DNA of 64,000 bases, taken from the NCBI GenBank assembly GCA_964410125.1, contig CAYPGQ010000005.1:21395-85394 (forward strand). The letters run 5' to 3'. This stretch comes from an uncultured Eubacteriales bacterium (GTDB lineage Bacteria; Acidobacteriota; Aminicenantia; Aminicenantales; Aminicenantaceae). The notes beneath the pieces were generated by a model that saw only the letters and a list, made by a program, of their open reading frames with translations, was not told the origin of the DNA and did not search any database. Position 1 is the first letter of the stretch; the number at the start of each line of letters is the position of its first letter. A program made the translations under genes and the position numbers. This document shows positions 40,440-55,940 of this stretch, piece after piece.

Positions 40440-43159
40440 ACTCCCCCATATTTTTCTGCTCTTATTCTGAATGCTTCTTCTCCACCTTCCATAATATTTT
40501 TTACATCTGCCCTAATATCTTCTTTATCAATAGAGCCTTTGTTATTAATAACGCACCTTTCATTTTTAGTCTCTAAAACAAGAACCAATTCAGAGTCTCC
40601 TAAGACAGGGATGTTCGCATTATGTGTAGCAATAAATAATTGTCTTTTCCCCTTTATTTCTCTAAGGATTTTCACTACGTCCTCGTATATAAAACGGTTA
40701 TCAAGGTCCTCTTCAGGCTGGTCAAGAACAACAATCCTATCCTCTTGAGCAAATAGAAGCAATAATAAGGCAGTAGCTTTTTGACCAATAGAAAGTTTAT
40801 TAATTAATTTATATTCTTCATTCACTTTCAAAAATATTTCAATTTTGTCCTCGGGAAAAAAAGTTTCAAGCTCATAAAGTCTTTCGGAATCTTTAAACCA
40901 TTCTAATATTCTACTGGACATTGCCTGAGTGAGATTGAATTCTTCACGCAATTTCTGCTCATTACCCTTGATATATTGGGAAAGCAGAAGACCATCGGTA
41001 ACTTTATTGGGTGATTTAACCAACGCTTCAATAGCATCGCTTGAAACTTTTGAGCCTTTTAATAAGTTTTTTAAATCTTCCATAAAGTTGTCTCTTTCTT
41101 CTTCATATTTCACCTCAATTTTGAGTCTTCCTTTTAAGGCATCGTTTATTTTTTCAAGTTGTTCTTTTCTTATATTAAAAATATCATGCCTCTTCTTACC
41201 TATTTTATTCTTCGATTTCTCCCTATCATTTTCCAATTTTTCAATTTCCATTTCTAGCCTTATTAATTCTTCAATTAACGGTATTAACTTTGCCCTTTCC
41301 TTAGTCAATCTTTCGAGTTCGTCTGGTTTAAGTCCTTTCTCGGCCAATTCTTTTTTTATTTTTTGAATTTTTGTTTCTACTTTTTTCTTTTTTTCTAACC
41401 ATTCAGCATACAAGCCTTCAATACTTTTTCTGGTCTGGTCTGTTGTCTTGGAAAGCTGTTTTTTACTTTGCTCAAATGCTCTTTTAATTTGACTTATCTC
41501 TCCAGCTACCTTTTCCAGTATAAATTTATTTTCACTCTTGCCTCTCTTTAAATTATTTTCTAAATAGTTTAGTTCGGATGCAGATTCATCAAAAAAGAAA
41601 AGCATTTTTTCGTTTATTCCATCAAGTTTTTCAATTGCATCTTGTAATTTTTCTTCATCATCTACTATGTTAGTCCACCTTCTGAGTCTTTCTTCTACTT
41701 TCATACCTTTATAAACTTTTATTCCTGCTTCTATTCCCTTTAATCTTTGCTCATACTCTTCCCTTTTTCTCGTCTTTTCTTTAAGAGCTAAAAGCTTTCT
41801 TCCATTTTCTCTTAATTGTTCAATTAACCTCTTGAATTCCTCATGTAAATGCCTTATCCTCTCTCCTATTAATTCATCAATTAATTGGAGTTGAAAAGTA
41901 GGGGTAATAGAAAGAAAATAGAGTTCCTTTTGACCTATTATAATCGGATATTTTGCTTCTTCGAACAAACTCTGTATAGAAAAACCTGTCTTCACACCAC
42001 TTTCATCAATAATTTCTGTATCTTTCCCTATTGTCCTTTTTATCTCGAATTCCTTTTTCTCTTTTCCATAATATCTTTCAATAAAGACAGAAAGCTCCCC
42101 TCCACTTCCAACAACACTCTCTACAAAATCCATTCGGAAAGATTTATCTGCATAAATTGGTAAATCCATAACATATCGCATAGTTTCTATGATAGCCGAT
42201 TTACCCACACCCCTTCCTCCAATAAATGTATTTAGTTCAGGATTGAATAAAATTTCTATATCCCTCAGAAAAGTTGAGCCATTGATTAGTATCTTTGATA
42301 TTCTATTATGATAAAAAGAAGGACATTCATAAGTCTTCACCCTTACTTCTGGGTCGTGTAGAGCTATTTTTAAAGCACCAATGTTAAAAGAACTTAATTT
42401 ATAATATGTGGTTCTTAATTTACCATCCCTCTTTTTAGTGCCTATATCGTCAAGACTTTTAGGGTCAGTATTTTCAAGGATTGCTATTTTTTTAAAATAA
42501 TCAGATGGAAGTTCATTTGTAGATATAAGTTTATTTTTTCCTTCCTCAGAGATATATTCAATAGCATCAGGCTTTACATTCATCAAATACTTTGCAGATT
42601 GGGAAGGATTATAAGTATGAAGAAGTCCTTTATCATTTTCTAGGTGTGGAAATACAACCAAACATTTATATTTTTCTCGAATTTTACTTATCAACTTTTC
42701 CAGTTCTAATTCACTTTCAATATCTCTATGTTTTCTTCCGTCAACTAAGGATTTTTGTGGATTCTTGTCTAAACTGTGTAGAAATGTATTTAAACCTTTA
42801 ATATCCACATTTTGCTCAAAAATTAACAACAAATGAAGACCATATTTCCCACTTAATTTTAATGAAAGCTCAACTCCTGGAAATATTACAATTCCTTTAT
42901 CTTTAGCCTTATTCTTTATTAACTCAAACCAATCCTTTCTCAATCCGTTATAATCTGTAATAGCTCCTATCTTAATCTGCGCTTCTTGTATTTTCTTTAT
43001 ATATTCTTCTACTAATTTTTCACACTCGTTATTGGAATCTAAATTAATCCCTGGTGGTAATGTAAGACTTTCTACACCTGGAGAATGCAGATGTAAATCT
43101 GTCTTCACCCAATTTGCCCCATTATAACTTTTGTCATTCATAGTAATTAACTCTTTCAT
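40436..43159 (-). CDS. PHP-domain phosphoesterase fused to a Rad50/SMC-like ABC ATPase with a long coiled coil
   Basis: N-terminal DLHLHSPG and FPGVELSL PHP motifs. Walker A IGGRGVGKSAII at about residue 316. A coiled coil of about 350 aa. C-terminal signature SIGQKATALLLLLFA, Walker B VVLDQPEEDLD and H-loop IATHN. Confidence 0.5.
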   Translation of the reverse strand: MKELITMNDKSYNGANWVKTDLHLHSPGVESLTLPPGINLDSNNECEKLVEEYIKKIQEAQIKIGAITDYNGLRKDWFELIKNKAKDKGIVIFPGVELSLKLSGKYGLHLLLIFEQNVDIKGLNTFLHSLDKNPQKSLVDGRKHRDIESELELEKLISKIREKYKCLVVFPHLENDKGLLHTYNPSQSAKYLMNVKPDAIEYISEEGKNKLISTNELPSDYFKKIAILENTDPKSLDDIGTKKRDGKLRTTYYKLSSFNIGALKIALHDPEVRVKTYECPSFYHNRISKILINGSTFLRDIEILFNPELNTFIGGRGVGKSAIIETMRYVMDLPIYADKSFRMDFVESVVGSGGELSVFIERYYGKEKKEFEIKRTIGKDTEIIDESGVKTGFSIQSLFEEAKYPIIIGQKELYFLSITPTFQLQLIDELIGERIRHLHEEFKRLIEQLRENGRKLLALKEKTRKREEYEQRLKGIEAGIKVYKGMKVEERLRRWTNIVDDEEKLQDAIEKLDGINEKMLFFFDESASELNYLENNLKRGKSENKFILEKVAGEISQIKRAFEQSKKQLSKTTDQTRKSIEGLYAEWLEKKKKVETKIQKIKKELAEKGLKPDELERLTKERAKLIPLIEELIRLEMEIEKLENDREKSKNKIGKKRHDIFNIRKEQLEKINDALKGRLKIEVKYEEERDNFMEDLKNLLKGSKVSSDAIEALVKSPNKVTDGLLLSQYIKGNEQKLREEFNLTQAMSSRILEWFKDSERLYELETFFPEDKIEIFLKVNEEYKLINKLSIGQKATALLLLLFAQEDRIVVLDQPEEDLDNRFIYEDVVKILREIKGKRQLFIATHNANIPVLGDSELVLVLETKNERCVINNKGSIDKEDIRADVKNIMEGGEEAFRIRAEKYGGV

Positions 43160-45198
43160 TTTATCTTCACCTTCAAAACTTTATTTGTGTCATTCCCAAA
43201 CACATCCACAACTTTTGTCATTATCTGATATTCCCCTGCCTCTTCGTATTTGTGTCTAGCTTCATACTCTACTTTTGGATTCTTCTTCATCCTGAAACTC
43301 TGCCATTGATTATGAAAAGTATCGCCTTTGTAACCCCAGTCAATCGCCCAGTAGTCTATGAGCTCTCTTGAATCCTTTACCTTACAAGCGATTTCTGCAA
43401 GCTCCGCAGTTGGTGCAAGCTGAAAGTCTGTGATTTTCAGTTCTACTTCTTCCTTTTTCATTTTTGTTTCAATCTCCAAATAGGCAACTTCTGGGAATCT
43501 CACATATTTAGACAGTTCTTTTTCAATAACATCATCCCTTATTTTCAATAGTTGCAGGTCGAAACCCACTAAAGAAGATTTGATTTCATTCACTGATGGT
43601 ATTTGAACCAATTTCAAATCAACTCCGTTTTTCTTTGCTAATTCTTTTGCCAGCTCATTTACCTCATAACTCCACTCCCAGCCCAAAACATCTGCCTTAT
43701 TGAAATTATTGCTTTTACATTCAATTACAACCTTCTCAACTTCTTCCATCGTAACAGGAGCGTTCAAAGGACCAACATGTACTGCCCTCTCTCCTTTCCT
43801 TCCATGCAAATATCTAAACCCTGTTAGAGGTTGAGATTGATAGAGTTTGAGCATAAAAGCGAGGTATTCATCCTCTCTTTCCTGCCAGTAAACTGTTTCA
43901 TAATTTCCGATATTCCAGAGTTCAAAAGGTTTTGCTGGCTTTTCATAATTCTTTTTGTTTTCATCTTGTAAATCCTTTGAATTGTGAATATCTAAAAGCC
44001 TCTTTCTTGTAATTTGAATCGCAAACTTGGATAAATCAGAGCCTATCCATCTTCTACCGAGTTTCTCTGCAACCGCTAAAGTTGTGCCGGAACCGCAGAA
44101 GAAGTCAGCTACAATATCGCTTGGGTTAGAAGATGCAAGAATGACGCGTTTCAGGAGAGCTTCGGGTTTTTGAGTATCGAAGTCTAAACGCTCTGCACTG
44201 TTTGCTGAAATCGGAGCAACTTCATCATCTTTCCAAAGGTCCCCCAAGTAATTGCCTGCTTTTTCATCCAAGTATCTCTTTATCCTTGGGAGGCCGGATG
44301 ACGTAAAAATAATTTGCCCTTCGTCCATGGCTTTGTTAATCTTTTCTTGGTCCCAAATCCAATGTTTACCCGGTGGCGGATACAATAGCTTATCTCCGAA
44401 ATAACGTGGCGGGCCGCTTCCTTTCTGTGTAAAATCGAAAGAACCGTATCTCCGTCCGCTTTCCTCCTCTACATATGGGTAAACCTCCTCATCTTTTTCT
44501 CCTCTAATAAATTGTGGGTTGAAAATAGCACTGTTAGACTTTGAGTATATTAAGAGCATGTCCTTAACGTTACTGAAGAATTTGCTCTGGACTTTTGCAG
44601 CAGTCAGTTTGCGCCAAGTGATTTCATTTCTAAAATTCTCATACCCAAAAATTTCATCCATCATTACCTTAACATAATGTCCCACATGCCAGTCTAAATG
44701 CACATAAATAGAACCATTCTCAGCCAATAACCCCCTAATCAAAACCAATCGTTCGTACATATACTTGAGATAAGAAGCAATGCCACCGCTCCATGTATCT
44801 TTGTATGCTCGCTCTTCAATTATAGACGGCTCTTTTTCTATTCTCTCGTCTCCGAGTTTTGTTCTAATGGTAAAATCTGCTCCAGTAAAAAAGGGTGGGT
44901 CAATATATATCAGATTTATCTTACCAGCCCAGCCCTGCTTTATTAGAGAACTCATCACAAGCTTGTTATCCCCCCAGATGAGTTTGTTTTTCCAGTCCTT
45001 TGAATAGTTCTCAGGATACTCATTCTCCGGGAATAGTGAAACTGTATATCCTCCCTTAATTCTAGGTTTATTTACTGTTTCCACTACTTGAAAGGGAAGA
45101 TTTGGTTTCTCAACAGGTATCTTTTCCCCTTTCTCATATTTATCATATTTTTCTTCCCAAAGCAGCTCCACATATTTTTTGTTATGTGCCATATTCAT
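43156..45198 (-). CDS. Type III R-M Mod subunit (beta-class N6-adenine DNA methyltransferase)
   Basis: Motif IV IYIDPPF precedes motif I FFCGSGTT, which is the beta-class order typical of Mod proteins. Length 680 aa. The stop overlaps the next gene by 4 nt. Confidence 0.75.
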   Translation of the reverse strand: MNMAHNKKYVELLWEEKYDKYEKGEKIPVEKPNLPFQVVETVNKPRIKGGYTVSLFPENEYPENYSKDWKNKLIWGDNKLVMSSLIKQGWAGKINLIYIDPPFFTGADFTIRTKLGDERIEKEPSIIEERAYKDTWSGGIASYLKYMYERLVLIRGLLAENGSIYVHLDWHVGHYVKVMMDEIFGYENFRNEITWRKLTAAKVQSKFFSNVKDMLLIYSKSNSAIFNPQFIRGEKDEEVYPYVEEESGRRYGSFDFTQKGSGPPRYFGDKLLYPPPGKHWIWDQEKINKAMDEGQIIFTSSGLPRIKRYLDEKAGNYLGDLWKDDEVAPISANSAERLDFDTQKPEALLKRVILASSNPSDIVADFFCGSGTTLAVAEKLGRRWIGSDLSKFAIQITRKRLLDIHNSKDLQDENKKNYEKPAKPFELWNIGNYETVYWQEREDEYLAFMLKLYQSQPLTGFRYLHGRKGERAVHVGPLNAPVTMEEVEKVVIECKSNNFNKADVLGWEWSYEVNELAKELAKKNGVDLKLVQIPSVNEIKSSLVGFDLQLLKIRDDVIEKELSKYVRFPEVAYLEIETKMKKEEVELKITDFQLAPTAELAEIACKVKDSRELIDYWAIDWGYKGDTFHNQWQSFRMKKNPKVEYEARHKYEEAGEYQIMTKVVDVFGNDTNKVLKVKIK

Positions 45199-45358: not shown

Positions 45359-46087
45359 CTATATTCCTCCTAAAAATGACTTTCTTACCTTATCATTTTC
45401 AAGGAGGTTTTTTGCTTTGTCTTCAAAGGCAATTTTGCCTATTTCAAACACATAGCCTCTATCTGCATATTCTAAAGCCATTCTCGCATTCTGCTCAACA
45501 AGGAGAATGGTTGTTCCATCTTTATTAATCTCTTTTATCTTCTCAAATACAGTATTCACATAATTCGGAGAAAGTCCCAGTGACGGTTCATCCAATAAAA
45601 GCAGTTTTGGTTTTAACATCAGGGCCCTACCAATAGCAAGCATCTGTTGTTCACCACTGCTTAATGTTCCTGCTCTTTGTCTCTGTCTCTCCTTAAGAAG
45701 TGGGAATATGCTGAATACCTTATCAATATATTCTTGAAGGGTTTTTTTATTACTTCTCGTGTATGAGCCCATTTCCAGATTCTCTAAAACGTTCATTGAA
45801 GTAAAGACCCTTCTTCCTTCTGGCACCAGACAAAGTCTTTTCTCAACTAACTGATACGGCTGCTTACTATTTATGTTTTCTCCTCGATATAAAATCTCTC
45901 CCGACTTAGGTTTCACCAGACCACAAATTGCCTTTAAGGCGGTAGATTTACCAGCACCGTTTGGACCTATCATTGCCACGATTTCTCCCTCACTTATATT
46001 GAGAGAAATGTCATCCAGAGCAAGGACAGTATCGTAATATACTGTTAAGTTTCTTACCTCAAGAAGCACTTTCACGCCTCCTGCCAA
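45359..46087 (-). CDS. Branched-chain amino acid ABC transporter ATP-binding protein (LivF-like)
   Basis: Walker [10 protein letters not shown], signature LSSGEQQ, Walker B LLLLDEPS. Confidence 0.8.
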
Positions 46088-46841
46088 GATAGGCTTCTAT
46101 AACCTTATCATTTCTGGTAATCTCTTCTGGAGGTCCTTCAGCAATCTTTTGACCATAGTTTAATACAATGACATTATCAGAAATTCCTGTTACTACTTTC
46201 ATATCATGCTCAATGAATAGAATCGTCTTGCCCTTTGTTTTTAATTTCTTTAGCACATCCAGTATCTTAACTCTCATATTAGGGAAAACCCCGGCTGTTG
46301 GTTCATCCAATAAAAAGAGTTCGGCTTCCATTGCCAATGCTCGGGCTAATTCAAGCAATCGTCTCTGTCCATGAGATAAATTCTGTGCAAGTTCTTCTTT
46401 TTTGTCTATAAGACCTACCAATTCAAGATATTCCAGAGCCTTCTCTCTATTTCTCTGCTCCTCGTCCTTCATAACCTTCGATTGAAGAAGCGCAGATATA
46501 AGTCTCTCACCTTTATCATATTTAGTTGCAAGCAACATATTCTCCATGACCGTAATCTGTGGGAAAAGCCTGATATTTTGAAATGTCCGTGAGATGCCTA
46601 ATTTAGCTATCTTGTAAGGTGGCAGATTAATAATCCTTTTATTTCTAAAATATACATCTCCAGATTGAGCATTGTAGAATCCAGAGATTATATTAAACAC
46701 TGTCGTCTTACCTGCACCATTAGGACCAACCAGGGCGTTTATAGTGGCTGGTTCAATAGAGAAGTCCAGGTTGTCTACTGCAACAATTCCATCAAATTCT
46801 TTAGAAAGATCTTTAACTTCTAATAACATCTCATCACTCAC
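46059..46841 (-). CDS. Branched-chain amino acid ABC transporter ATP-binding protein (LivG-like)
   Basis: Walker [10 protein letters not shown], signature LSHGQRR, Walker B LFLLDEPT. Confidence 0.8.
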
Positions 46842-47707
46842 TTGAATTGATACCTTCCCATTATGCCTTGTGGTCTCTTGATCATAAGCACAACCAAAAG
46901 CAATCCATATAGCATCTGTCTCATCGGAGCTGCAATTGATGACGGCATACCTAGAAATCTAAGAAGTTCAGGGAAGACCACAAGAATTACTGCTCCCGCT
47001 ATAGAGCCTGATATACTTCCCATTCCGCCAAAAATAACCATAAGGAGGATGGTAATAGATTCCATTACAGTAAAGCTCGATGGATCAATGAAGGTTATGT
47101 AATGGGCATAAAGGCTCCCAGCAATCCCAGCAAAGAATGCTCCAATAATGAAAACCAATATCTTGTGCTTGGTTGTATTTTTTCCTAATGCCTGTGAGGC
47201 AATTTCATCTTCCCTGATAGATCTCAATATTCTGCCAAAAGGGGAATTCACTACTCTTCTTACAACAAAGATAGTAATTATCACAAAAACTAAAACCAGT
47301 AATAGGTAGGACCATATTTCTGACAAGTGAAAACCGAAAACGGAAAACCCAGGTATTCCAGGAAGTCCCATTGGACCTCTTGTAAGAGATACCCAGTTCT
47401 TAGCAATGGAGTAAATAATTATCCCTAATCCGAATGTTGCCAGAGCAAGATAATCTCCCTTCAGTCGCACTGCCGGATAGCCTATTACAATGCCTGAGAG
47501 TGCCGCTACACACGCTCCTATCGACAATCCTATCCAGGGAGATAAATCCATATTTAATGCAAGGAGACTTGATGTATATGCCCCTATACAAAAAAAGGCT
47601 GCATGACCCAGTGCTGGTAGGCCTGTATATCCCACAATGAGATTAAGGCTCAGGGTAAGAATTATGTAAATCCCAGCAATAATAAGTATATGTAAGAGAT
47701 ACTCCAT
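46838..47707 (-). CDS. Branched-chain amino acid ABC transporter permease (LivM-like)
   Basis: Polytopic permease. Overlaps the adjacent genes by 4 nt. Confidence 0.7.
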
Positions 47708-47711
47708 AGCC

Positions 47712-48590
47712 TTAAATTGTGTCCTTTTCTGTTTTGGTACCTAAAAAACCCCATGGTCTTATCAAAAGAAAAATTATAAGGATAACAAACGCTATACAAT
47801 CCTTCCATCCGGCTGATATTTTCCAGATACCAAGATTCTCAGCTAATCCCAGAAAGAATCCACCCAGCACTGCACCTGGAATACTACCGATGCCACCGAT
47901 AATAGAGGCAATAATTCCCTTCAAGAGAGCGCTGAATCCCATTGTTGGTTCAATATTTGTTTCAAAGGAAATAAGTATCCCAGCAGCACCGGCTAATGCA
48001 GAGCCTATGGCAAATGAAGTCAAGACTATCTTCTCGGGATTTATACCAACAATATTTGCCGCTATGGGATCATCAGACACCGCCCTCATTGCCTTGCCGA
48101 GCTTTGTCTTCTGGATAAAAAGCAAGAGTAGTATCATAAGAATGATTGAGACCGCTAAAATTAAAATCTGGATATCAGTAATCACGGCGCCAAGAAAATG
48201 GTGTCCTTCTTTAATAGGGCCGGTTCTTATTGTAAGAATCTGTGCTCCATAGAGCAGTTGAATCAGGTTTTGAAGGAAGATAAAGACACCGAATGATGCA
48301 AGGAGAAAAATCAGGTTAGATGCATTCTGTTTGCGAAGGGGATGATAGACGAATCTATCAATGGCTATACCTAAAAGTCCTGCTAAAATTATCGCTGAAA
48401 AAAAAGAAAGGACGAAATTGAGGTGCAAGGAAATAATTAGTGTATAAGCAAAATACGCACCGGTCATATAAACCACCCCATGAGCAAAGTGAAAAAACTT
48501 TACCGTACGATAGATTACAGTAAAGCCTATAGCAATGAGGGCATAAATGCTGCCTGCGATTATGCCGTTAAGTATTAATTGTTGTATCAT
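47712..48590 (-). CDS. Branched-chain amino acid ABC transporter permease (LivH-like)
   Basis: Polytopic permease immediately upstream of the LivM-like gene. Confidence 0.7.
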   Translation of the reverse strand: MIQQLILNGIIAGSIYALIAIGFTVIYRTVKFFHFAHGVVYMTGAYFAYTLIISLHLNFVLSFFSAIILAGLLGIAIDRFVYHPLRKQNASNLIFLLASFGVFIFLQNLIQLLYGAQILTIRTGPIKEGHHFLGAVITDIQILILAVSIILMILLLLFIQKTKLGKAMRAVSDDPIAANIVGINPEKIVLTSFAIGSALAGAAGILISFETNIEPTMGFSALLKGIIASIIGGIGSIPGAVLGGFFLGLAENLGIWKISAGWKDCIAFVILIIFLLIRPWGFLGTKTEKDTI

Positions 48591-48868
48591 TTGTTTTTAT
48601 TATATATATTTTTATTCTAAAAGCCTTTCGTCTTTGTGTATCTGCTAGACAAATTTAATTTGTGTCTAATTGTGACACCCCGAATAATGAGAATGTAAAT
48701 ACTATCAACTATTACCCCATTAAGTAGAAGTTGTGAAATCATAGTTTATACTACCTTACTTTTCCAATAAAAACTTTAAATTCCATTGGTTAACCTTTTG
48801 TCAAATACAAAGACTGGAGCCCATCCTTCCCATACTCTCATTACACCATCCTGTCACTTCTGAATAAG

Positions 48869-50785
48869 TCATTGGTGAAGGTTTCTTAAGGGAAAAATCC
48901 TCTCGAAAAACTTATTGAAGACAGTTATTTGGTAAAGGGAGTACAATTCTGCTTTTTCAAGCTCTCCTGTCCAGTCTGATTGGAAAGATTCGTTGTGTAG
49001 CACACTTTTTTCAGGCAGTGCCAAAACAAAGGATTCATCTGCAACTAAAATTGAGTACACCTCTTCCCAGCCCGCGCGAGAAAAAAGCAAAGAAATGAAG
49101 AGACGCATCCACTCTTTTTCTTTGTGCCCAAAGTATAAAAGGAAAATAGCATGGGAATCTTTCAAATGTGCGTATAGAGGATTTCTTGTGGACTTATTGC
49201 CAATATCCATACTTAAAAAATCCATCGATAGATAGTGAGGAGGATCGGCTATAATAAGATTGTAATCTCCGTAATAAATATCGTTGGGTTCTTCTAACGG
49301 TGGTTGCTTTTTATAGTGATTTGTCAACGAAAATATATCAGCAGGCACGATATGAGCTGCACTTGAGACTTTCTCATTATACGGAAAAGGATTTTTATCT
49401 ATACTAGCAATGTTCAGCTGTTCGTCTGATGATCCCCGTAGGAAACACTCATTTAGACCTGTTCCGGAAAAAAGACTAAGTATCTTTAGATTATTTTTAT
49501 TTTTAATTGCTTGTACTACAGATAAGGAGATATATCCTAAAAGCGGAGAGGGGCCGACTTGCTCTGAATATCTATAAACCAAATCTAGCTCGTTTTCCCT
49601 CAATTGTACACCAAGTTTCTCAAATTTCTTTCTGTAGATCCCCAAAACAGAATCATCAGAGACTTCATTCTTTGTCCATTCATATAAGTTAACATCCATA
49701 GCTTCAGTCACCTCAATCGTTGGCGAGATAAAAACATCTACCCTTATCTTTAGTTTATCCACCGGAATTACATTTGTCTTTTCGGTAACTTTCAATTCTT
49801 TACATTGAAGAGCCTCCAAATAACCTTTCATCCAACCATTTAAGTATTCCTCTATTTTATTTAATATCATCGCTGAGTCACTATATAGAAAATTGTATCC
49901 ATCTTTGTTAGAGATATATAGTCTTATTATTAGAACATACGCTGGATGCTTCGGTGAATTTTTGTTACCTATTCGCTCTACCACAAATAAATTGTGTCCA
50001 ATATTATCAACGCTGACTATATCCCTCTTATTCCGAACTTTTATCATATTCTCAACATATCGGTTGGCTTCTCCTTTAAGATGATTAACAAAGTCTTTAT
50101 TGGATATGCAGAAGCGTTTATAGCTCTTTTTATATTCCAAACAAAAATTATATGTAGAGTGAATAACTTCCATAATCCTTTTACATAGAATCTTAAGCTC
50201 CTCATCATACTTATACATATCCGTATATTCTTCCTCTAAAACAAGGGCAATTCCCCCAAGAGTCCCATGTGAATAAATCGCAAATTTAAAGTTTTCATAT
50301 TTTTCCTTTTGAACAGTTAAAAAAGAATACGCTGTAGAAACCACACTATGCTTATAAGTCAAATCTTGAATATCACCAACCAGTTCAAAGTTTTTCCATG
50401 TAGATGGAGATTCCAATTTAAATCCTGCCGGAATGGGTTTTTTTATGCCAAAATGTCTAAGTTTTTCTTCGCTCCTCAGTGCAATATGTTTGTCCCAATA
50501 AATTTTTAAGAAGTCCGCGTACTTTTTTTGGGTTTCTTCCTTTATATTGCCAGTGTAAACGAGTTTTCTATCAGACCTTTTGTAATGGATCCCTCCTATA
50601 GTAATTCCTATAATTTTAAACTTCTTTTGTATAGATTCCCATCGTTTTTCCGCGATGCATTTAACTGGATTGTCGGTTTTATTATTATGCGACAACAAAT
50701 CTCTCCTTATTGTATCCACTATCGCACTTTCGAAAGAAAGGAGAGCTTCTTTTCTTAATTGTAGTTTTTGGTCATTGACACCCAT
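48869..50785 (-). CDS. Hypothetical 638-aa protein with a C-terminal amino-methyltransferase-like domain (FSGTG ... DPPH)
   Basis: The C-terminal third carries LSLFSGTGLNE (motif I-like) followed about 80 aa later by NLIIADPPHY (a (D/N)PPY-type motif IV, gamma-class order). The N-terminal 400 aa resemble nothing I recognise. Confidence 0.4.
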   Translation of the reverse strand: MGVNDQKLQLRKEALLSFESAIVDTIRRDLLSHNNKTDNPVKCIAEKRWESIQKKFKIIGITIGGIHYKRSDRKLVYTGNIKEETQKKYADFLKIYWDKHIALRSEEKLRHFGIKKPIPAGFKLESPSTWKNFELVGDIQDLTYKHSVVSTAYSFLTVQKEKYENFKFAIYSHGTLGGIALVLEEEYTDMYKYDEELKILCKRIMEVIHSTYNFCLEYKKSYKRFCISNKDFVNHLKGEANRYVENMIKVRNKRDIVSVDNIGHNLFVVERIGNKNSPKHPAYVLIIRLYISNKDGYNFLYSDSAMILNKIEEYLNGWMKGYLEALQCKELKVTEKTNVIPVDKLKIRVDVFISPTIEVTEAMDVNLYEWTKNEVSDDSVLGIYRKKFEKLGVQLRENELDLVYRYSEQVGPSPLLGYISLSVVQAIKNKNNLKILSLFSGTGLNECFLRGSSDEQLNIASIDKNPFPYNEKVSSAAHIVPADIFSLTNHYKKQPPLEEPNDIYYGDYNLIIADPPHYLSMDFLSMDIGNKSTRNPLYAHLKDSHAIFLLYFGHKEKEWMRLFISLLFSRAGWEEVYSILVADESFVLALPEKSVLHNESFQSDWTGELEKAELYSLYQITVFNKFFERIFPLRNLHQ

Positions 50786-50801
50786 TTATTCCGCTCCTTC
50801 G

Positions 50802-51824
50802 TTACTTCAAATGTGGGTAGGAATCAGTATATTTCCATGCAGGATCGTAAAAGAACATTAGAAATATTTTGTTCTTAACCTTCTTAGCCATTTTAAGACA
50901 TGCCATTAGGGTCAAGCAGGAGCTTCTACCAACGAGTTGTTCTTCTATTCCATGCAGAAGTTTTTCACCTTCTTTATAAGTGTCTTGTGGGAGTAGAATA
51001 AAATCATCTATTATATCTAAATTAATATCTAATTTCTCTGGAGGCAAACCGAATGGCGCGATTCCGTATATCTCATGAATAAGTTTTTCGCGGTCTAACA
51101 CTTCCCCTTTTGCTTTTAGTGTTTGAATCATAGGAAGCTCAGAAGGTTCCACAACAATAACTTTTTCTGAATTCAGAGTTGCCTTCAGATATTCTCCACT
51201 CCCACTTATAGTGGTACCTGACCCTACAACTCCTACATGAAAGTCAGGCATTACACCATAATTCTTTTTAATAATAAACAAAGTATCCTGCATAAGTTTA
51301 TGAAAAGCCTTTTTAGCACTTGGGCTTATTTTAGTAACACAGTATAGCCGATGAGGATTCTCTCCGATTTTTCCGCCCTTTTTTACTTTGTCCTCATTTA
51401 AAATTTCCTCTAACTTTTTGACATAGCCTTTTGCATATTCACCAGCAGGAGAAAAGACTACTTCGCAACCATATTCTTTTATCTGCTCTACTCTTGCCTG
51501 AGGGGTGTCTTTGTGGGTAATGACTGTGCACTTTTTGTATCCCAGTAAGGTCGCACATTTTGCAAATGCGGCTCCTGCATTCCCCGTGCTGGCTTCTATC
51601 ACTGGTGTAATACCTGCTACAATATATCCTTTCTCCTCAGCCTCCTGAAACAAAATTGGATAAATCCTGTCAAATGTGCTCCCCGTAGGATTCTTCCATT
51701 CTTCAATTGCGAATATCCTGTTTCTATTAGGTATTTCTATCTTCTTGATTTCATATACCGAGGCGCGAATTACACTTATCTCTTTATACAGTTTTTCTCT
51801 ACTTTCAGGTAACATTGTCTTCAC
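50802..51824 (-). CDS. Cysteine synthase-fold (PLP fold type II) protein lacking the Schiff-base lysine
   Basis: Aligns to the CysK/threonine synthase signature across NPTGSTFDRI (canonical NPSFSVKCRIG / NPTGSFKDRG), ASTGNAG (TSGNTG) and GVVGSGTTISG (GVGTGGT). The PLP lysine position is Phe. It overlaps the SBP gene by 4 nt. Confidence 0.6.
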   Translation of the reverse strand: MKTMLPESREKLYKEISVIRASVYEIKKIEIPNRNRIFAIEEWKNPTGSTFDRIYPILFQEAEEKGYIVAGITPVIEASTGNAGAAFAKCATLLGYKKCTVITHKDTPQARVEQIKEYGCEVVFSPAGEYAKGYVKKLEEILNEDKVKKGGKIGENPHRLYCVTKISPSAKKAFHKLMQDTLFIIKKNYGVMPDFHVGVVGSGTTISGSGEYLKATLNSEKVIVVEPSELPMIQTLKAKGEVLDREKLIHEIYGIAPFGLPPEKLDINLDIIDDFILLPQDTYKEGEKLLHGIEEQLVGRSSCLTLMACLKMAKKVKNKIFLMFFYDPAWKYTDSYPHLK

Positions 51825-52942
51825 TCTCCCACTTCTACAAATTGTCCATTTTTTATCGTTTTGAGCATTACTTGTGCTATGATATCTCCGTTCTTATCAA
51901 AACTTATAGGCCCGATCGCACCCGGAAATTTTTTAAGTGAGTACAAACCTTTTTTTATATCCTCAGAACTCCCGCTAGAAGTGGCAATTACTTCATACAA
52001 TACTCTAATTGCATCATATCCAAGAGCAGAAAAGAGATCGGGAACTTCACCATATTTCTTTTGGTACTTTTCAGAGAAGCTTTTTGCTACCTTTAATGTT
52101 TTCGGAGTGAATTTCTGCATCGTGTATATAACGCCTTCAGCTGCATTACCAGCTATTTTTATCACTTCCGGGGATTCAATCCCTATAGTGCTAAAAATTC
52201 TATCTTGAAATCCCAATTCCTTTGCCTGTCTGAGAAAATGAGCCATTTCTAATGAATGACCGATAAGATAAACTCCGTCATAGTGAGATTGTCGTAACTT
52301 TGCAATAACTGTCCGAAAATCAGATGTTCCCTGCTCATACCCCTCAGAATAACCGATGCTACCTCCCACTGACTCATATTTTTTCTTAAAAACCTCAAAG
52401 TTACCTGCACCATAGTCTGTATTCACAAAAATCACAGCCAATTTGCTTATCTTATATGTCTTAATAGCTTCTTCCGCCATTGCCTCAACTTCTAACTTTC
52501 CACTTAATCTTAATCTAAAAATATTCTCTCCGGCTTCTGTAATAAGTGGACTGGTGGCACCTGAAGATAAAAAGACAACCTTTTCTTGCTCCGCTATTGG
52601 TGCACAGGCCATAACAATAGAACTTCCCACCCCCCCGGTTACCGCCGCCACTTTCTCCGCTCGAATCAGCTTGTTAAAAGCACTTACCCCTGCCTGAGGG
52701 TTTGTTTGAGAATCTTGAACAATAAGTTCTACCTCTATAGGCTTATTCTGATTAATCTCTTCTACTGCAATTTGCATTCCCTTGTAGTTTCGTTCGCCTT
52801 GTGGAGCTAGTGGGCCTGTTAAGGGTAATATCACCCCAATCTTTATCTCCCCTTGCTCTTTCTTTGTCTGGGTGACAAAGAACACGATGGCTAAAGCCAC
52901 AACCACCACGACACCGATTCCGATCCATATGTTCCGTTTCAT
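51821..52942 (-). CDS. ABC transporter substrate-binding protein (LivK / Peripla_BP_6-like)
   Basis: N-terminal TM/signal, then IKIGVILPLTGPLAPQG typical of branched-chain amino acid/amide binding proteins. Confidence 0.75.
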   Translation of the reverse strand: MKRNIWIGIGVVVVVALAIVFFVTQTKKEQGEIKIGVILPLTGPLAPQGERNYKGMQIAVEEINQNKPIEVELIVQDSQTNPQAGVSAFNKLIRAEKVAAVTGGVGSSIVMACAPIAEQEKVVFLSSGATSPLITEAGENIFRLRLSGKLEVEAMAEEAIKTYKISKLAVIFVNTDYGAGNFEVFKKKYESVGGSIGYSEGYEQGTSDFRTVIAKLRQSHYDGVYLIGHSLEMAHFLRQAKELGFQDRIFSTIGIESPEVIKIAGNAAEGVIYTMQKFTPKTLKVAKSFSEKYQKKYGEVPDLFSALGYDAIRVLYEVIATSSGSSEDIKKGLYSLKKFPGAIGPISFDKNGDIIAQVMLKTIKNGQFVEVGE

Positions 52943-53019: not shown

Positions 53020-53562
53020 TCAATGATCCTGGGCCATAATTCCGACTTTTCTCAACTGTTCCTTAAGATATTGCTCACTCCTGTTCAATATACCCTTGAA
53101 GTGTTTCCGAACCACAATATCAAATTTAGGACAAAGTTGACTTTCCAAATCCTTCATCCGGTTAGGCCTTAAACTTTCAATCAACATCTCTCTTGTTGGG
53201 ATTTCATCCATCGGGATTTTCGCAAGAATCCAGTTTTCAAGAGGGGCAAGACGTAAGACTGCTATAACAGGTTGGTAGCCATCGTGAGTACGGTCACGAA
53301 GAGCCTGCACATTATCAGTGGTGAGAGGAATTGATAATTTCTCTGTGGTTTTTACCTCAACTGCAAACTTTTGATTAGATTCCGATGTTATATCAATATC
53401 AACTCCTTGCACGCCTCGTTCTACAATATTAGTAAAGCCCATTTCATGGAAGCTGAGAGCCAGTAGTTTTTGTACAATTTTGCCAAAAGGTCCAGATGGT
53501 GTACCTTTGATTCCAAACTTTTTCTGCAACTTCTGTAAAAGTTCAAGAGTTTCTACTTTCAT
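53020..53562 (-). CDS. Small PD-(D/E)xK-fold nuclease-like protein
   Basis: GVDIDITSESNQKFAVEVKT matches the D-x(n)-E-x-K restriction-endonuclease-like core. Its start is 3 nt after the upstream ATPase stop. Confidence 0.4.
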   Translation of the reverse strand: MKVETLELLQKLQKKFGIKGTPSGPFGKIVQKLLALSFHEMGFTNIVERGVQGVDIDITSESNQKFAVEVKTTEKLSIPLTTDNVQALRDRTHDGYQPVIAVLRLAPLENWILAKIPMDEIPTREMLIESLRPNRMKDLESQLCPKFDIVVRKHFKGILNRSEQYLKEQLRKVGIMAQDH

Positions 53563-53564
53563 AA

Positions 53565-55742
53565 TTATATTTCCTTCGAAATTTTCGGGCCGGAATCCGG
53601 TGCCCAGTCCGAAAGCTTATATATAGTTTTGACTTTGGTAATATTATCCTTTAAAAGCTGTTGCATTTCAGCATCCATAGTAGAGACTGTAATGTTTTTT
53701 ATATCGCTGAGTTCATTAAAGATTTCTACAAGACGAGCTTTTTGCTGTGAATCTAAACTTTGCGATGAGTCGTCCATCAAGATAAATCCGAGAGGATGAG
53801 AATCTCCAGATGCTTTAGTCAAACCTAAGAAAATAGACAAAGCAAGGCTATTCAGGTCTCCTTGACTTAGAACAGGAATGGGTCTCTTGCCGTCTTGGTC
53901 TTCGAAAATATAAAAGTTTCCGCCAGTTTTTTTATCCTCATCTACTTTAATATTGAGTGTTTGAAAAGCCGGGTTGTTGGTTATTCTACGAAAGTAGCGG
54001 CCAATTGCACTCCTGGCTGAATCAATTTTTTCTTCTGCTTCCTTTAGCATACAAGATTTGATAATTTTACTAAGTTCTTCCACGTCTCTTACTAGATTTG
54101 AGACATCGGTTCTGATTTTCTCTTGTTTCTGGTATTCATTGGTTTTTTGAATTTGGTTTATTTCTTCGAGTTTATTCTTAAATAGCAAAATATCATAAAG
54201 TAAGTTCATTATATCTGTTTTTTCTAAAATGGCGTCAATTGTAACTTGCTTATTCTTAATAGCATCTGCAATCTCTTTTAAACGTGAATCAATGTTTTTT
54301 ATTTCTATGGATAATATTGCAGCAGGATCATCCTTATCAGTCAACTCTTTATGTAGAAATTCTGAGATATTATTGATTGCCTTCTTTAATTCCTCTTTTT
54401 CTCTTCTAGCGTCTTTCTCTAAGTGGACAAGTTCCTTCTTCAATCTTTCAAAATCGGTTTTCTTTTTGTCTAATTCTGCCTGTTGTTTTTCTAACTCCTG
54501 CACTTGGGCTGTAATTTTTTCCTCCCATTCCTTTCGTAAATGCTCAAGCAAATTGGACACCTTTTCTCCGCATAAGGGACAAATGTCAGCATCAGAGGGA
54601 GCAGCTAATTTCAGAATGGAAATACCTTCTTCAATCAATTTCGCTTTCGGGCTTATTCGCTTAATTTCTTTATTAATAGCATCAATCTCTTCAAATGCTT
54701 TTCTTATTTTATTGTCGATTTCATCTTTGTTGCCATTTTCTTGTTCAAAATCCTGAAGTTCCTTCTTCTTTGATTTAAGATTCAGGTATTGAGTCTCATA
54801 TTTACTTTTGAATGAAACCATTTCGCTTCTCTTCCTTTGTTTTTCTGATTGTTCTTTCACGTCGGGAGATTCTGCCCAAAGACGGCTGCACTCATTCTTA
54901 ATATCGGTAATAAATGACTCGGTATTTTTCCAATCAGAAGGAGGAGAAATTGCCGTTGTTGTAAGTCCCAATAGTCGGGCAAAGTTACCAATGTCTTTTA
55001 TGGTTGATTCTACCAGTTCAAGCAGTTTATTTTCGTTTAATTCTTCTTCACTCAGTCCCTTCTCTTTGGCTTTATCTCTTTTATTATCCAGGTCTTTTTG
55101 CCTTATCTTTATCCCTTCTTGTACACGGGTCTGAAATTTATTAAATTCTTCTGTAAGCTCTTTCTGAAGCTTTAAGACGTCAGACTTCTTAATACCATCA
55201 AGAATATTCCGATAATCTGATAAACCTAAGAGGCGGTCCATTACAGCACTCTGTTCGCTTGGTTTTTGTATCACAAAGTCGTGGATAGTCTCCTGGTGTT
55301 GATATACGGTAGTAGCAAAGTCTTTGAATGAAACCCGAAGTAACTTTGCTATTTCTTGGTCACCCTCGTCTCCTTCTTTCTCTGTTCCATTTGGCAAAGA
55401 TATTTTTATACTTTTGCCTTTTTTGCCTTTTCCCTTGGCTTCGGCTCGAGTAATAGTAAAGATTCCCTGTTCTCCCTCGATTTTCAAATTTACCTTGGCC
55501 TTCTCAGAATTATCATTCACAACTCTCCAGGCCATCTCACCTGTGCCTACACGTTCACGAATTCCAGATTTTTCACCAATGCACTCATCTCCATACAAAC
55601 ACCATTCAATTGCATTTAATACACTACTCTTACCTTGATGATTTCCCCCATGTAGTAAAGTAACGGGATTTTCGAATTCGATAGAGGTTTTTTGAGTAAA
55701 TCCTCTGAATCCTTCTATTTCTACTTTTTTAATCTTTAACAT
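53565..55742 (-). CDS. Compact Rad50/SbcC-like ABC ATPase with coiled coil and a CxxC zinc hook
   Basis: N-terminal EIEGFRGF...HGGNHQGKSSVLNAIEWCLYG (Walker A). A central coiled coil with ICPLCGEK at its midpoint. C-terminal signature LSQGDLNSLALSIF and Walker B FILMDDSSQSLD. Confidence 0.6.
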   Translation of the reverse strand: MLKIKKVEIEGFRGFTQKTSIEFENPVTLLHGGNHQGKSSVLNAIEWCLYGDECIGEKSGIRERVGTGEMAWRVVNDNSEKAKVNLKIEGEQGIFTITRAEAKGKGKKGKSIKISLPNGTEKEGDEGDQEIAKLLRVSFKDFATTVYQHQETIHDFVIQKPSEQSAVMDRLLGLSDYRNILDGIKKSDVLKLQKELTEEFNKFQTRVQEGIKIRQKDLDNKRDKAKEKGLSEEELNENKLLELVESTIKDIGNFARLLGLTTTAISPPSDWKNTESFITDIKNECSRLWAESPDVKEQSEKQRKRSEMVSFKSKYETQYLNLKSKKKELQDFEQENGNKDEIDNKIRKAFEEIDAINKEIKRISPKAKLIEEGISILKLAAPSDADICPLCGEKVSNLLEHLRKEWEEKITAQVQELEKQQAELDKKKTDFERLKKELVHLEKDARREKEELKKAINNISEFLHKELTDKDDPAAILSIEIKNIDSRLKEIADAIKNKQVTIDAILEKTDIMNLLYDILLFKNKLEEINQIQKTNEYQKQEKIRTDVSNLVRDVEELSKIIKSCMLKEAEEKIDSARSAIGRYFRRITNNPAFQTLNIKVDEDKKTGGNFYIFEDQDGKRPIPVLSQGDLNSLALSIFLGLTKASGDSHPLGFILMDDSSQSLDSQQKARLVEIFNELSDIKNITVSTMDAEMQQLLKDNITKVKTIYKLSDWAPDSGPKISKEI

Positions 55743-55754
55743 CGTCTACCTTCA

Positions 55755-55940
55755 TCATAGCGTTTTTTCAAGATTCTCAAGTAGTTGTTCATAATCCTTT
55801 TTGATTTTATCTATTCGAGAGTTGAGCGTTGATTTTATCTGCTCAACTCCACCTTGTTCATAGGATTCGCATATTTCTTGCCAGAGATTTCTCAATTTCT
55901 CTTCTTTTATTTCTTTTTGAACTTTTTCTTTATAGGTCAT
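55755..55940 (-). CDS. Small (61 aa) charged coiled-coil protein
   Basis: Short ORF 12 nt upstream of the ATPase gene. Helical, K/E-rich. Confidence 0.3.
   Translation of the reverse strand: MTYKEKVQKEIKEEKLRNLWQEICESYEQGGVEQIKSTLNSRIDKIKKDYEQLLENLEKTL

Follow-up and report, generated by a model that had tools for sequence, protein, structure and literature searches.

The operon at positions 45359–52942 of the window, the 64,000-nt stretch of DNA analysed here, raises the question of why an amino-acid importer should enclose a cysteine-synthase-fold protein lacking its PLP-binding lysine and a large methyltransferase-like protein, and whether such a gene set serves nutrition at all.

Gene content and genomic setting

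Seven co-directional genes were found on the minus strand, transcribed in the order LivK-type SBP, CysK-fold protein (PALP), 638-aa protein (X), LivH, LivM, LivG and LivF. The coordinates, gene content and operon order of the original prediction held for every open reading frame. The features are as follows:

51821–52942, minus strand: SBP of the HAAT/LivK type, 373 aa, with an N-terminal hydrophobic signal/anchor segment (Peripla_BP_6, E = 1.8e-59)
50802–51824, minus strand: lysine-less CysK/OASS-fold protein, 340 aa from a GTG start or 337 aa from the ATG at 51815 (PALP, E = 2.1e-34)
51666–51692, minus strand: NPTGSTFDR motif with Phe51 in place of the Schiff-base lysine (translation; profile alignment to CBS/CysK chains)
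51327–51341, minus strand: CVTKI segment with Lys165, aligning with the active-site QQF/DQY segment of OASS and CBS
48869–50785, minus strand: third gene X, 638 aa, without a Pfam or NCBIfam match
49457–49471, minus strand: FSGTG, SAM-binding motif I of the methyltransferase-like domain (F439 and G441 nearly invariant in the family)
49235–49246, minus strand: DPPH, motif IV of the (D/N)PP(Y/F/H) amino-methyltransferase type (D514, P515 and H517 nearly invariant)
48591–48868, minus strand: X–livH spacer, 278 nt, with a decayed livH 5' copy (41-codon ORF, 48620–48742)
47712–48590, minus strand: LivH-type permease, 292 aa (BPD_transp_2, E = 3.3e-46; LivH model, E = 3.3e-55, below cut-off)
46838–47707, minus strand: LivM-type permease, 289 aa (BPD_transp_2, E = 7e-53; LivM model, E = 9.6e-67)
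46059–46841, minus strand: LivG-type ABC ATPase, 260 aa (ABC_tran, E = 9e-32; BCA_ABC_TP_C, E = 1.5e-11; LivG model, E = 4.9e-76)
45359–46087, minus strand: LivF-type ABC ATPase, 242 aa (ABC_tran, E = 2.1e-34; LivF model, E = 7.5e-79)

The importer comprises the full five-component set of HAAT systems such as E. coli LivJ/K-LivHMGF: a Peripla_BP_6 SBP, a pair of permeases of the BPD_transp_2 type and a pair of ATPases, of which one ends in a BCA_ABC_TP_C tail. The best solved relative of the SBP was the branched-chain amino-acid binding protein 3td9 of Thermotoga maritima (E = 1.7e-53). All five importer proteins scored under the NCBIfam equivalog cut-offs, the SBP reaching 155.6 bits with the LivJ/K model (cut-off 477 bits). 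Unlike HAAT operons, this one has two extra genes wedged between the SBP and permease genes, and it is island-borne, low in GC and mosaic. The predicted 4-nt overlap of the SBP and CysK-fold genes exists with the GTG start; with the ATG of the public gene calls, 9 nt downstream, the protein has 337 aa and the genes are separated by a 5-nt spacer. They are tightly coupled whichever start codon is used.

The 278-nt interval before livH, previously taken for a promoter gap, contained no promoter signal above chance, and no terminator was found after the 638-aa gene. It carried a decayed livH start instead, whose remnant peptide (MISQLLLNGVIVDSIYILII...) resembles LivH N-termini (54% over 28 aa, E about 2e-5 in a local database). 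X–livH spacers elsewhere measure 0–26 nt, but 143 nt in L050, and there are loci where livH directly adjoins the third gene or overlaps it. By its sequence, the interval appears to be a recombination scar, not a promoter gap.

GC-content was about 0.31–0.40 over 36–58 kb of the window versus 0.47–0.53 in its first 22 kb, in agreement with the AT-rich island proposed earlier. The expected defence modules were present on both flanks: a type III Mod (7e-107), Res (5e-14), a Ppl-like ATPase (3e-48) and a Schlafen/AlbA_2 gene on one side, and an LmuB-like SMC ATPase (1e-49) on the other.

The lysine-less CysK-fold family

NPTGSTFDR aligns with NPGGSVKDR of CBS and CysK and has Phe at the PLP-lysine position, which bears out the lysine-less cysteine-synthase fold of the original prediction. 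The AF2 model of the protein (pLDDT 94) matched CysK/OASS structures in Foldseek with a TM of about 0.78, while the CysK model gave 108.5 bits against a 351-bit cut-off. Shared with the fold type II PLP enzymes CysK/CysM (OASS) and CBS are the fold itself and, with CysK and CBS, the Asn loop (STGNAGA), the glycine-rich phosphate loop (GSGT) and the pyridine-N-contacting Ser. In contrast to those enzymes, the whole family has Phe or Tyr for the Schiff-base lysine, and about 10–20 residues are inserted ahead of CVTKI.

Phe or Tyr occupied the lysine position in all ~55 relatives, and F51 itself is nearly invariant. Little or no variation across the lysine-less family was seen at N82, G201-S202-G203 and S302, the positions that in CysK contact O3', the phosphate and N1 of PLP. 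The alignments indicate that lysine loss marks a whole conserved family in which the other PLP-binding residues are kept, and we infer that the protein binds PLP. Lys-to-Ala mutants of CysK-fold enzymes (PDB 1d6s, 3vc3, 3x44, 5b1i) are likewise lysine-less yet hold PLP, and 3vc3 (K95A) was among the top structural matches. According to the PDB descriptions, 3x44 (K43A with O-ureido-L-serine) and 5b1i (K42A with L-methionine) contain the amino acid trapped as an external aldimine. By analogy, these engineered proteins could serve as a model for ligand trapping by the natural one. They are, however, laboratory mutants of real enzymes, whereas the loss in the cassette is natural, ancient and conserved, with an aromatic replacement.

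Lys165 of the CVTKI segment is nearly invariant in the family and may be a relocated lysine or a ligand contact; its placement near the active-site segment could mean restored catalysis. It thereby bears on the main rival explanation, in which the operon is nutrient-scavenging or catabolic island cargo importing an unusual amino acid or conjugate, e.g., an adenosyl-sulfur compound. We regard this as possible but rather unlikely. The CysK-fold protein would then be a genuine enzyme that uses Lys165 as a relocated base or binds PLP non-covalently, a proposal that we find similarly doubtful. A standard amino-acid HAAT transporter with an SBP matching 3td9, the strong conservation of PLP-contact residues and the near invariance of K165 in an aligned active-site segment all favour this explanation; the Tyr-type branch (e.g., P0056) lacks K165, which argues against it. 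Genomic neighbourhoods lend it further support. Deeper-branching Tyr-type and Phe-type lysine-less relatives adjoin genes for an SSF (sodium:solute) symporter, an SDR, a SIS-domain protein, an FAD oxidase and a PhyH dioxygenase, surroundings that look metabolic, and NUDIX genes lie next to solitary family members. Lysine-less PALP genes are also found on their own among housekeeping genes in DPANN-like archaeal contigs, which counts against a conflict role.

Recurrence of the cassette and its third position

The order SBP–PALP(Lys-less)–X–LivHMGF recurred in at least ten distinct metagenome cassettes, whose SBP and PALP are 40–57% identical to those of the window. It was seen in L012, L013, L017, L019, L021/22, L024, L026, L023/L050 and L052, with tiny spacers or overlapping genes. 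Homologues of the 638-aa protein (25–37% identity) lie between a lysine-less PALP gene and livH in L015, L023/L050 and L052. In the genome of L015 plus L016, X directly follows PALP, although LivHMGF is upstream of the SBP gene. In L053, a 638-aa homologue is followed directly by livH, and the 124 nt sequenced upstream of the homologue contain no PALP gene. Given this linkage and the recurring order, the chance juxtaposition considered alongside the original prediction is excluded. This locus represents one instance of a conserved, horizontally mobile cassette of seven genes found in uncultured microbes; very probably the cassette is a conserved functional unit with a variable third gene. No described equivalent was found in PADLOC, Pfam or literature searches.

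In the window, the third gene encodes a C-terminal class I methyltransferase-fold domain after an N-terminal part of about 400 aa that has no recognisable relative, residues about 254–400 of which are conserved in the family. No methyltransferase model in Pfam or NCBIfam reached threshold, and the earlier methyltransferase-like call is supported by the FSGTG (motif I) and DPPH (motif IV) motifs. Identity to (D/N)PP(Y/F/H) amino-methyltransferases (RlmJ, RsmD/HI0767, HemK, Trm1) and to spermidine synthases was 9–17%.

Across cassettes, the third position is occupied by at least five unrelated families with no homology between them detectable by BLAST or hhalign: the 638-aa type, a CBASS-type purine-nucleosidase fusion (L013) and several orphans, two families of which have hydrophobic N-termini. 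The L013 gene matched the PADLOC CBASS "Effector, PN-superfamily" model (2.3e-17), and its domain also matched MTA/SAH nucleosidase (4e-12). Window and L053 encode LivH proteins 94% identical (88.9% at the nucleotide level) next to X proteins only 30% identical, with nucleotide homology beginning exactly at the livH ATG. Between L021 and L026, X is 56% identical and the remaining genes 90–97%. Taken together, the sequences show that the third gene is a slot swapped between cassettes.

The catabolic explanation would give the third gene a tailoring role specific to each lineage, for instance as a methyltransferase or MTA/SAH-type nucleosidase, a part of it that we also hold to be unlikely. Adenosyl compounds are bound by both methyltransferase-like and nucleosidase domains, and the MTA/SAH match of L013 fits this account. 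However, the L013 domain fits the CBASS effector model better (60.7 bits) than Pfam/NCBIfam nucleosidases (46–47 bits), and several occupants are orphans, including the two families with hydrophobic N-termini, which carry no enzyme signature. Metabolic enzymes are not normally replaced at one operon position by unrelated proteins.

Evolutionary rates were compared between L021 and L024. X differs by 68.7 nonsynonymous and 4.3 synonymous changes (dN/dS 3.8, P = 2.5e-4 against neutrality), versus 4 nonsynonymous and 6 synonymous changes in LivH+LivM+LivG (Fisher P = 1e-4 vs. X); dN/dS was about 0.2 for the neighbours. This signal of selection, the strongest seen, derives from a single lineage of metagenome assemblies, and in one of them, L024, the PALP gene has a premature stop. 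The substitution pattern shows the third gene to be under positive selection in the L021 family, the only lineage with comparable close alleles. Neither this ratio nor 30–56% identity on a 90–97% identical backbone is expected of a tailoring enzyme.

The same values bear on a further alternative, in which the CysK-fold protein is a cytoplasmic transporter regulator (trans-inhibition sensor) or an amino-acid/B6 buffer with no conflict role, and X is under relaxed constraint. CysK is known to moonlight in regulation, partnering CysE, CymR and CdiA-CT, and the tight coupling of the SBP and PALP genes would suit such a role. Relaxed constraint, however, predicts a dN/dS of about 1 and stops, not 3.8 with X ORFs that stay intact despite three in-frame indels, and the defence-island location is left unexplained. 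We consider this alternative highly improbable.

It is also improbable, if slightly less so, that SBP, PALP and LivHMGF form the functional unit and that X is unrelated selfish, toxin or defence cargo at a PALP–livH recombination hotspot. The unrelated occupants, the sharp homology break at the livH ATG with the decayed livH remnant in the window, and the AbiE, ParE and 23S_rRNA_IVP genes inserted between operon genes of L012 are all compatible with a hotspot. Against it, every cassette with the interval sequenced had an intact third gene, none being empty, and this gene often shows translational coupling with the genes beside it, overlapping or abutting PALP or livH (L013, L017, L052). Moreover, 638-aa members with as little as 25–37% identity still adjoin lysine-less PALP genes, and X keeps its place after PALP in the rearranged genome of L015 plus L016.

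Known defence systems adjoin four of the six cassettes with sequenced flanks, a small sample. L012 has GajA (1e-278), GajB and an MmeI-like gene upstream, besides the AbiE and ParE genes within the cassette; L050 has a C5 methyltransferase (8e-166) and a type II restriction enzyme; and L013 has an AbiEi-like protein, a CHAT-TPR protein and TniB. No recognisable defence neighbours were found for L052. The cassette proteins themselves matched no PADLOC model except for the ATPases, whose matches reflect generic ABC similarity.

A putative import-and-response system

The slot is swapped, it is under positive selection in one lineage, and the cassette usually lies among defence systems; therefore, we read the cassette as conflict- or defence-type rather than housekeeping nutrition. 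The evidence suggests an undescribed conflict or defence system, not a plain nutrient operon. The original prediction had left two options, a metabolic cargo cassette or an uncharacterised system sensing or transforming an imported amino-acid-like ligand; its unusual parts and their linkage stand, and the evidence leans towards the latter.

Our tentative model, to which we give somewhat less than even chances, is that the cassette serves conflict or defence: the PLP-fold protein would trap an imported ligand resembling an amino acid, and this capture would be coupled to a variable effector. The SBP and the LivHMGF-type transporter would carry an amino-acid-like compound into the cell, where the cytoplasmic lysine-less protein would capture it, most likely as a PLP external aldimine, which would be long-lived for want of a lysine that could displace it. 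The third protein would then be controlled by whether this protein carries ligand, or would make use of that state. The third protein would be the output module: a SAM-binding amino-methyltransferase-like protein in the window, and elsewhere a CBASS-type purine nucleosidase fusion or an orphan, in some cases with a hydrophobic N-terminus. Ligand trapping, coupling of PALP to X and the defence role itself are all putative.

Such an arrangement resembles CBASS, Lamassu, Avs and Thoeris in combining a conserved module with non-homologous outputs, one of them a CBASS-type PNP nucleosidase domain, in its defence-island location and in the positive selection on its variable gene. In contrast to these systems, it has no cyclase, STAND or SMC core, and the conserved module is an SBP-dependent importer with a PLP-fold protein. 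We know of no precedent for an SBP-dependent importer in a defence system. A conceptual analogue is found in arbitrium/RRNPP peptides, which are taken up by the housekeeping Opp permease and sensed by TPR receptors: there, too, a small molecule from outside the cell passes through an ABC importer to a cytoplasmic receptor, which then switches an output. The cassette differs in having a dedicated importer and, as its putative receptor, a PLP-fold pseudoenzyme.

Importer operon of the window

All seven same-strand open reading frames of the original prediction were recovered on the minus strand at 45359-52942, with coordinates agreeing exactly. They encode a LivK-type substrate-binding protein (SBP), a CysK-fold protein (PALP), a 638-aa third protein (X) and four Liv-type transporter components.

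Genes of the cassette in the window
51821-52942 (-): SBP, 373 aa; Peripla_BP_6, E = 1.8e-59
50802-51824 (-): PALP (CysK-fold), 340 aa; PALP, E = 2.1e-34; cysK model, 108.5 bits
48869-50785 (-): X (third gene), 638 aa; without Pfam or NCBIfam match
47712-48590 (-): LivH-like permease, 292 aa; BPD_transp_2, E = 3.3e-46
46838-47707 (-): LivM-like permease, 289 aa; BPD_transp_2, E = 7e-53
46059-46841 (-): LivG-like ATPase, 260 aa; ABC_tran and BCA_ABC_TP_C
45359-46087 (-): LivF-like ATPase, 242 aa; ABC_tran, E = 2.1e-34

The 4-nt overlap described for the SBP and PALP genes holds if the PALP gene starts at GTG; public gene calls instead place the start at an ATG 9 nt further on, so that 5 nt separate the two genes. 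The SBP matched the solved structure 3td9 (E = 1.7e-53) and is a type I periplasmic binding protein (Peripla_BP_6/ANF_receptor). The set expected of a HAAT importer (Liv-type family, TC 3.A.1.4) was complete, with two BPD_transp_2 permeases and two ATPases, one of LivG type with BCA_ABC_TP_C and one of LivF type. Orthology to E. coli LivJ/K-HMGF, and with it branched-chain amino-acid specificity, was not supported, as every score lay under the NCBIfam equivalog cut-offs (LivH 187.9 vs 379 bits, LivG 255.3 vs 362, SBP 155.6 vs 477). An Rfam scan of the window returned tRNA-Pro only, with no riboswitch or other known RNA in the locus.

The window differed at 38 positions from three otherwise identical metagenome contigs (L001, L002, L005). 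All of these differences (window 45629-48039) lay in livF, livG, livM and livH (3' half only) and clustered densely at 47721-48039; the X, PALP and SBP genes showed none. The tract looks like strain-level recombination.

A CysK-fold protein without the Schiff-base lysine

The predicted model of PALP (AF2, pLDDT 94) had the fold type II PLP fold, with TM ~0.78 to O-acetylserine sulfhydrylase (OASS) structures, although its score did not reach the curated TIGR01139 cysK cut-off (108.5 vs 350.95 bits). When PALP was profile-aligned with CBS and CysK chains of solved structure, NPTGSTFDR stood opposite NPGGSVKDR. This places Phe51 at the Schiff-base lysine position and bears out the predicted lack of the PLP-binding lysine. 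Phe or Tyr occupied this position in all ~55 homologues (34-61% identity) and in relatives down to 26%. Sequencing error or pseudogene formation was ruled out as the cause of the loss, which is family-wide in a protein otherwise strongly conserved. One family member, the PALP gene of contig L024 (L024:1320-2360), carries a premature TAA (Y218*, TAC to TAA), either a pseudogene or a sequencing error; the third gene of the same contig differs from that of contig L021 at 13% of residues.

In CysK, PLP is held by an Asn loop, a Gly-rich phosphate loop and a Ser that contacts the pyridine nitrogen. The corresponding STGNAGA loop, GSGT loop and GRSS serine were invariant or nearly so across the PALP family. 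The best structural matches of the PALP model included the engineered Lys-to-Ala mutants 3x44, 5b1i and 3vc3 (K95A). Two of these CysK-fold mutants, 3x44 (K43A, with O-ureido-L-serine) and 5b1i (K42A, with L-methionine), retain PLP and trap an amino acid. Because the PLP-holding residues are kept and the closest structures include PLP-retaining mutants, PALP is most simply read as a candidate PLP-holding ligand trap or receptor. Another lysine, Lys165 (CVTKI), was nearly invariant in the family and missing from its Tyr-type branch; it aligned with the QQF/DQY active-site segment of OASS and CBS and, judging from this alignment, could be a relocated base.

Whatever the cassette does, bacteria and archaea share a conserved clade of Lys-less CysK-fold proteins that keeps its cofactor-binding residues. 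It is an undescribed natural counterpart of the amino-acid-trapping laboratory mutants and may represent a new class of PLP-based ligand receptor. Literature searches for fold type II proteins lacking the lysine, and for defence systems combining PLP with a binding protein, returned nothing relevant.

A recurrent cassette with an exchangeable third gene

The order SBP, Lys-less PALP, third gene, LivH, LivM, LivG, LivF recurred in many independent metagenome contigs (L012; L013; L017; L019; L021/22, L024 and L026; L023/L050; L052). Chance juxtaposition was ruled out, the order being found in at least 10 cassettes. The original prediction had allowed that the 638-aa and CysK-like proteins might not be linked elsewhere; a gene of the 638-aa family directly followed the Lys-less PALP gene in L015, L023/L050 and L052, so this objection falls. 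The genome represented by L015 and L016 (contigs overlapping at 100% identity) had the order LivHMGF, SBP, PALP, X, which could reflect two cassettes in tandem. Another 638-aa homologue, in L053, was followed directly by livH, and the 124 nt upstream of it encoded no PALP C-terminus. Spacers within the cassette were small or negative in most loci, with exceptions of 278 nt in the window and 143 nt in L050.

Searches gave no sign of plasmid or phage carriage of the cassette. Plasmid collections held no family-level PALP match (best ~30% identity, an ordinary cysK), viral contigs likewise held none, and plasmids and phages gave no 638-aa match. In a scan of GTDB species genomes the sole relative was an ordinary protein at 29% identity.

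A word-indexed search of 5.8 billion proteins matched the 638-aa protein to itself only. The protein occurred on 16 contigs, and its neighbouring genes were the same in all 10 places listed. Exhaustive HMMER searching added 17 further relatives, the full-length ones 23-41% identical. The conserved part (residues ~254-607) comprises an unknown domain (VVERIGNK...FLY...KIEEYLNGW) and, after it, a methyltransferase-like domain with nearly invariant motifs (GPS, FxGxG, D463, D483, DPPH, YFxHxE) and residues (F439, G441, D463, D483, D514, P515, H517). All three sequence hallmarks were present (FxGxG as motif I, an acidic residue after beta-2, DPPH as motif IV), together with a Rossmann-like class I methyltransferase fold; the AF2 model (pLDDT 77, pTM 0.84) matched RlmJ and Bud23 in Foldseek. 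The call of a (D/N)PPY-type methyltransferase-like protein is therefore supported by fold and motifs, at that level. Curated family thresholds were not reached: Pfam and NCBIfam gave no methyltransferase match for the window protein, homologue P0062 gave sub-threshold matches only (Methyltransf_31, 23.8 vs 27 bits), and a PDB profile search returned E ≥ 0.009.

No recognisable relative was found for the N-terminal ~400 residues. A conserved GG hairpin and the REC-GGDEF fusions of two homologues suggested a degenerate GGDEF/palm domain there, which neither hhalign nor the PDB profile search supported. In these homologues, P0066 (L055:1496-5566) and P0068, the C-terminal module (unknown domain plus DPPH methyltransferase fold) is fused to receiver and GGDEF domains, with an additional C-terminal guanylate kinase in P0066. 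The fusions hint at a nucleotide-related substrate.

The third position is a variable slot that held at least five gene families, with mutual similarity undetectable by BLAST or hhalign.

Third-gene families at the slot
638-aa family: 638-763 aa; window, L015, L023/L050, L052, L053; C-terminal methyltransferase fold
Orphan: 537-581 aa; L017, L021, L024, L026; hydrophobic N-terminal segments
Orphan: 414 aa; L019; hydrophobic N-terminal segments
Orphan: 375 aa; L012; weak GIHY-motif similarity to the 638-aa family, E ~0.07
Purine-nucleosidase-like (PNP) fusion: 533 aa; L013; N-terminus matching the PADLOC CBASS model 'Effector, PN-superfamily' (2.3e-17)

The PNP fusion also matched Pfam PNP_UDP_1 (2e-12) and the NCBIfam MTA/SAH nucleosidase (4e-12). 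An adaptor domain common to the third genes was sought by BLAST and hhalign and none was found, the sole hint being the weak GIHY similarity.

On near-identical backbones the third gene diverged far faster than its neighbours. Between L021 and L024, X was 86.7% identical at the amino-acid level, with 68.7 nonsynonymous and 4.3 synonymous differences (dN/dS 3.8; binomial P = 2.5e-4 vs neutrality), compared with 4 nonsynonymous and 6 synonymous differences across the 855 codons of LivH, LivM and LivG (Fisher P = 1e-4). For L021 and L026, X was 56% identical (dN/dS 0.81) and its neighbours 90-97% (dN/dS 0.15-0.22). The window and L053 shared 30% of X residues, against 94% for livH (88.9% at the nucleotide level). 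Hypermutation by a diversity-generating (DGR-type) mechanism was ruled out: substitutions were gene-wide, 70% were transitions, and there was no adenine specificity.

The 278-nt spacer ahead of livH was originally taken for a promoter gap, a reading that found no support; it contains a livH remnant. Within 48591-48868 lies a 41-codon ORF (48620-48742, minus strand; MISQLLLNGVIVDSIYILIIRGVT...) resembling LivH N-termini (54% over 28 aa), but at the nucleotide level it is unlike the livH of the cassette. Exchange of the third gene probably left it behind as a decayed 5' piece of a foreign livH. The remnant is consistent with a past exchange at the X/livH junction; nucleotide homology between the window and L053 begins exactly at the livH ATG (window position 48591).

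We consider it very likely that these genes make up a functional cassette, conserved and mobile, in which an importer of amino-acid type is combined with a Lys-less protein of PLP fold and with a third gene that evolves fast and can be exchanged. A reading of the third gene as unrelated cargo at a recombination hotspot appears improbable. Whatever the cassette does, a slot with dN/dS ~3.8 within an otherwise strongly conserved transporter operon offers a sharp entry point to an arms race in uncultured lineages, for instance Aminicenantes-like bacteria or DPANN-like archaea.

In L012 (L012:9056-15631) the operon is interrupted, with an AbiEi/AbiEii pair between the third gene and livH, and a ParE toxin pair and a 23S_rRNA_IVP gene between livH and livM.

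Genomic surroundings and possible function

As predicted, the cassette lies in an AT-rich island (GC ~0.31-0.40 at 36-58 kb vs 0.47-0.53 in the first 22 kb). One neighbouring gene product clusters at 90% identity with a protein of a Candidatus Aminicenantaceae MAG, which makes an Aminicenantes bacterium the probable host. A tRNA-Pro(GGG) gene (58797-58873, minus strand) marks the right edge of the low-GC tract (~36-58.5 kb); no att-type direct repeat of it of at least 14 nt was found elsewhere in the window. The defence modules proposed on both sides were confirmed.

Modules flanking the cassette
36737-45198 (-): type III restriction-modification operon; Mod 43156-45198 (E = 7e-107), Res 36737-39283 (5e-14)
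53020-58236 (-): LmuB-like flank; SMC ATPase, 725 aa (1e-49), with a 180-aa orphan directly downstream

The first module is a composite defence operon. Between Mod and Res it encodes a 907-aa PHP and SMC-like ATPase (PADLOC Ppl model, 3e-48) and a 389-aa Schlafen/AlbA_2 and HATPase_c_4 protein matching pAgo-associated models. In the second, the 180-aa orphan is possibly a Lamassu-type effector; a 196-aa orphan and a 492-aa HNH protein lie further along, and the small proteins of this flank had no Pfam or PADLOC match.

Four of the six cassettes with usable flanks, a small sample, adjoined recognised defence or mobile-conflict genes: the window, L012 (GajA (1e-278), GajB and an MmeI-like gene upstream; AbiE and ParE pairs within the operon), L050 (a C5 methyltransferase (8e-166) and a type II restriction enzyme) and L013 (an AbiEi-like protein, a CHAT-TPR protein and TniB). 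L021 had a weak methyltransferase-like neighbour only, and L052 no recognisable defence neighbour. In PADLOC-DB v2, a defence-system model library, PALP, X, LivH and LivM had no match, the SBP match was marginal (PD-T4-6, E = 0.0069), and the ATPase matches reflected generic ABC similarity.

Our preferred mechanism, tentative as a whole, is that an imported ligand would be captured by the PLP-fold protein, that the captured state would be coupled to the third protein acting as an effector, and that the cassette would act in conflict or defence. DPANN-like archaeal contigs also carry solitary Lys-less PALP genes, set among housekeeping genes, and these count against the conflict reading. The main rival, in which the cassette is specialised for catabolism or salvage and its enzyme is non-canonical, is a less probable but serious candidate. 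Deeper-branching Lys-less relatives did occur in metabolic-looking contexts, of Tyr type in L029 and L036 and of Phe type in L028/L032.

Contexts of deeper-branching Lys-less relatives
L029: HTH regulator and sodium:solute symporter, then PALP
L028/L032: STAND NTPase and FAD oxidase, then PALP and PhyH dioxygenase
L036: LivF, SBP, SDR and SIS-domain protein, then PALP and a 990-aa protein

Coupling to solute uptake is the theme common to the clade and fits receptor and enzyme roles alike. Least likely, and quite improbable in our judgement, is a regulator or buffer of the transporter with no conflict role.

A more specific version of the conflict reading, less likely than not but with a substantial chance of being right, is a new import-coupled prokaryotic conflict or immune system built from importer, ligand-trapping pseudoenzyme and swappable effector. 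A dedicated SBP-dependent ABC importer would bring in an extracellular amino-acid-like signal, perhaps an alarm or kin metabolite or a lysis-released compound. The Lys-less pseudoenzyme would trap it covalently as an external aldimine, and trapping would switch the fast-evolving, interchangeable effector, whether methyltransferase-like, purine-nucleosidase or possibly membrane-anchored. The parts are of known kinds (HAAT importer, CysK fold, class I methyltransferase fold). No described counterpart turned up, in the libraries and literature searched, for the conserved Lys-less clade, for its link to a dedicated importer or for the hypervariable, positively selected slot. Should the cassette prove to act in defence or conflict, it would be, to our knowledge, the first such system whose conserved core pairs a PLP-fold pseudoenzyme with a dedicated importer of nutrient type. 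Extracellular small-molecule sensing would then join the known triggers of prokaryotic immunity. Independently of what the cassette does, the orphan third-gene families, the 638-aa family included, would acquire a functional setting.

Further genes accompany PALP in individual loci. Just upstream of the cassette, the L050-type locus (L018:4198-5265; L050:288-3089) encodes a second Lys-less PALP (355 aa), a paralogue transcribed in divergent orientation, and a PNP_UDP_1 protein that stands alone (257 aa). A NUDIX hydrolase gene lies near the solitary PALP gene in three independent DPANN-like archaeal loci (L011:2084-9035; L049:8305-10077; L056:863-3769), close and divergently oriented in L049 and L056, with Fic genes nearby in two of the three.
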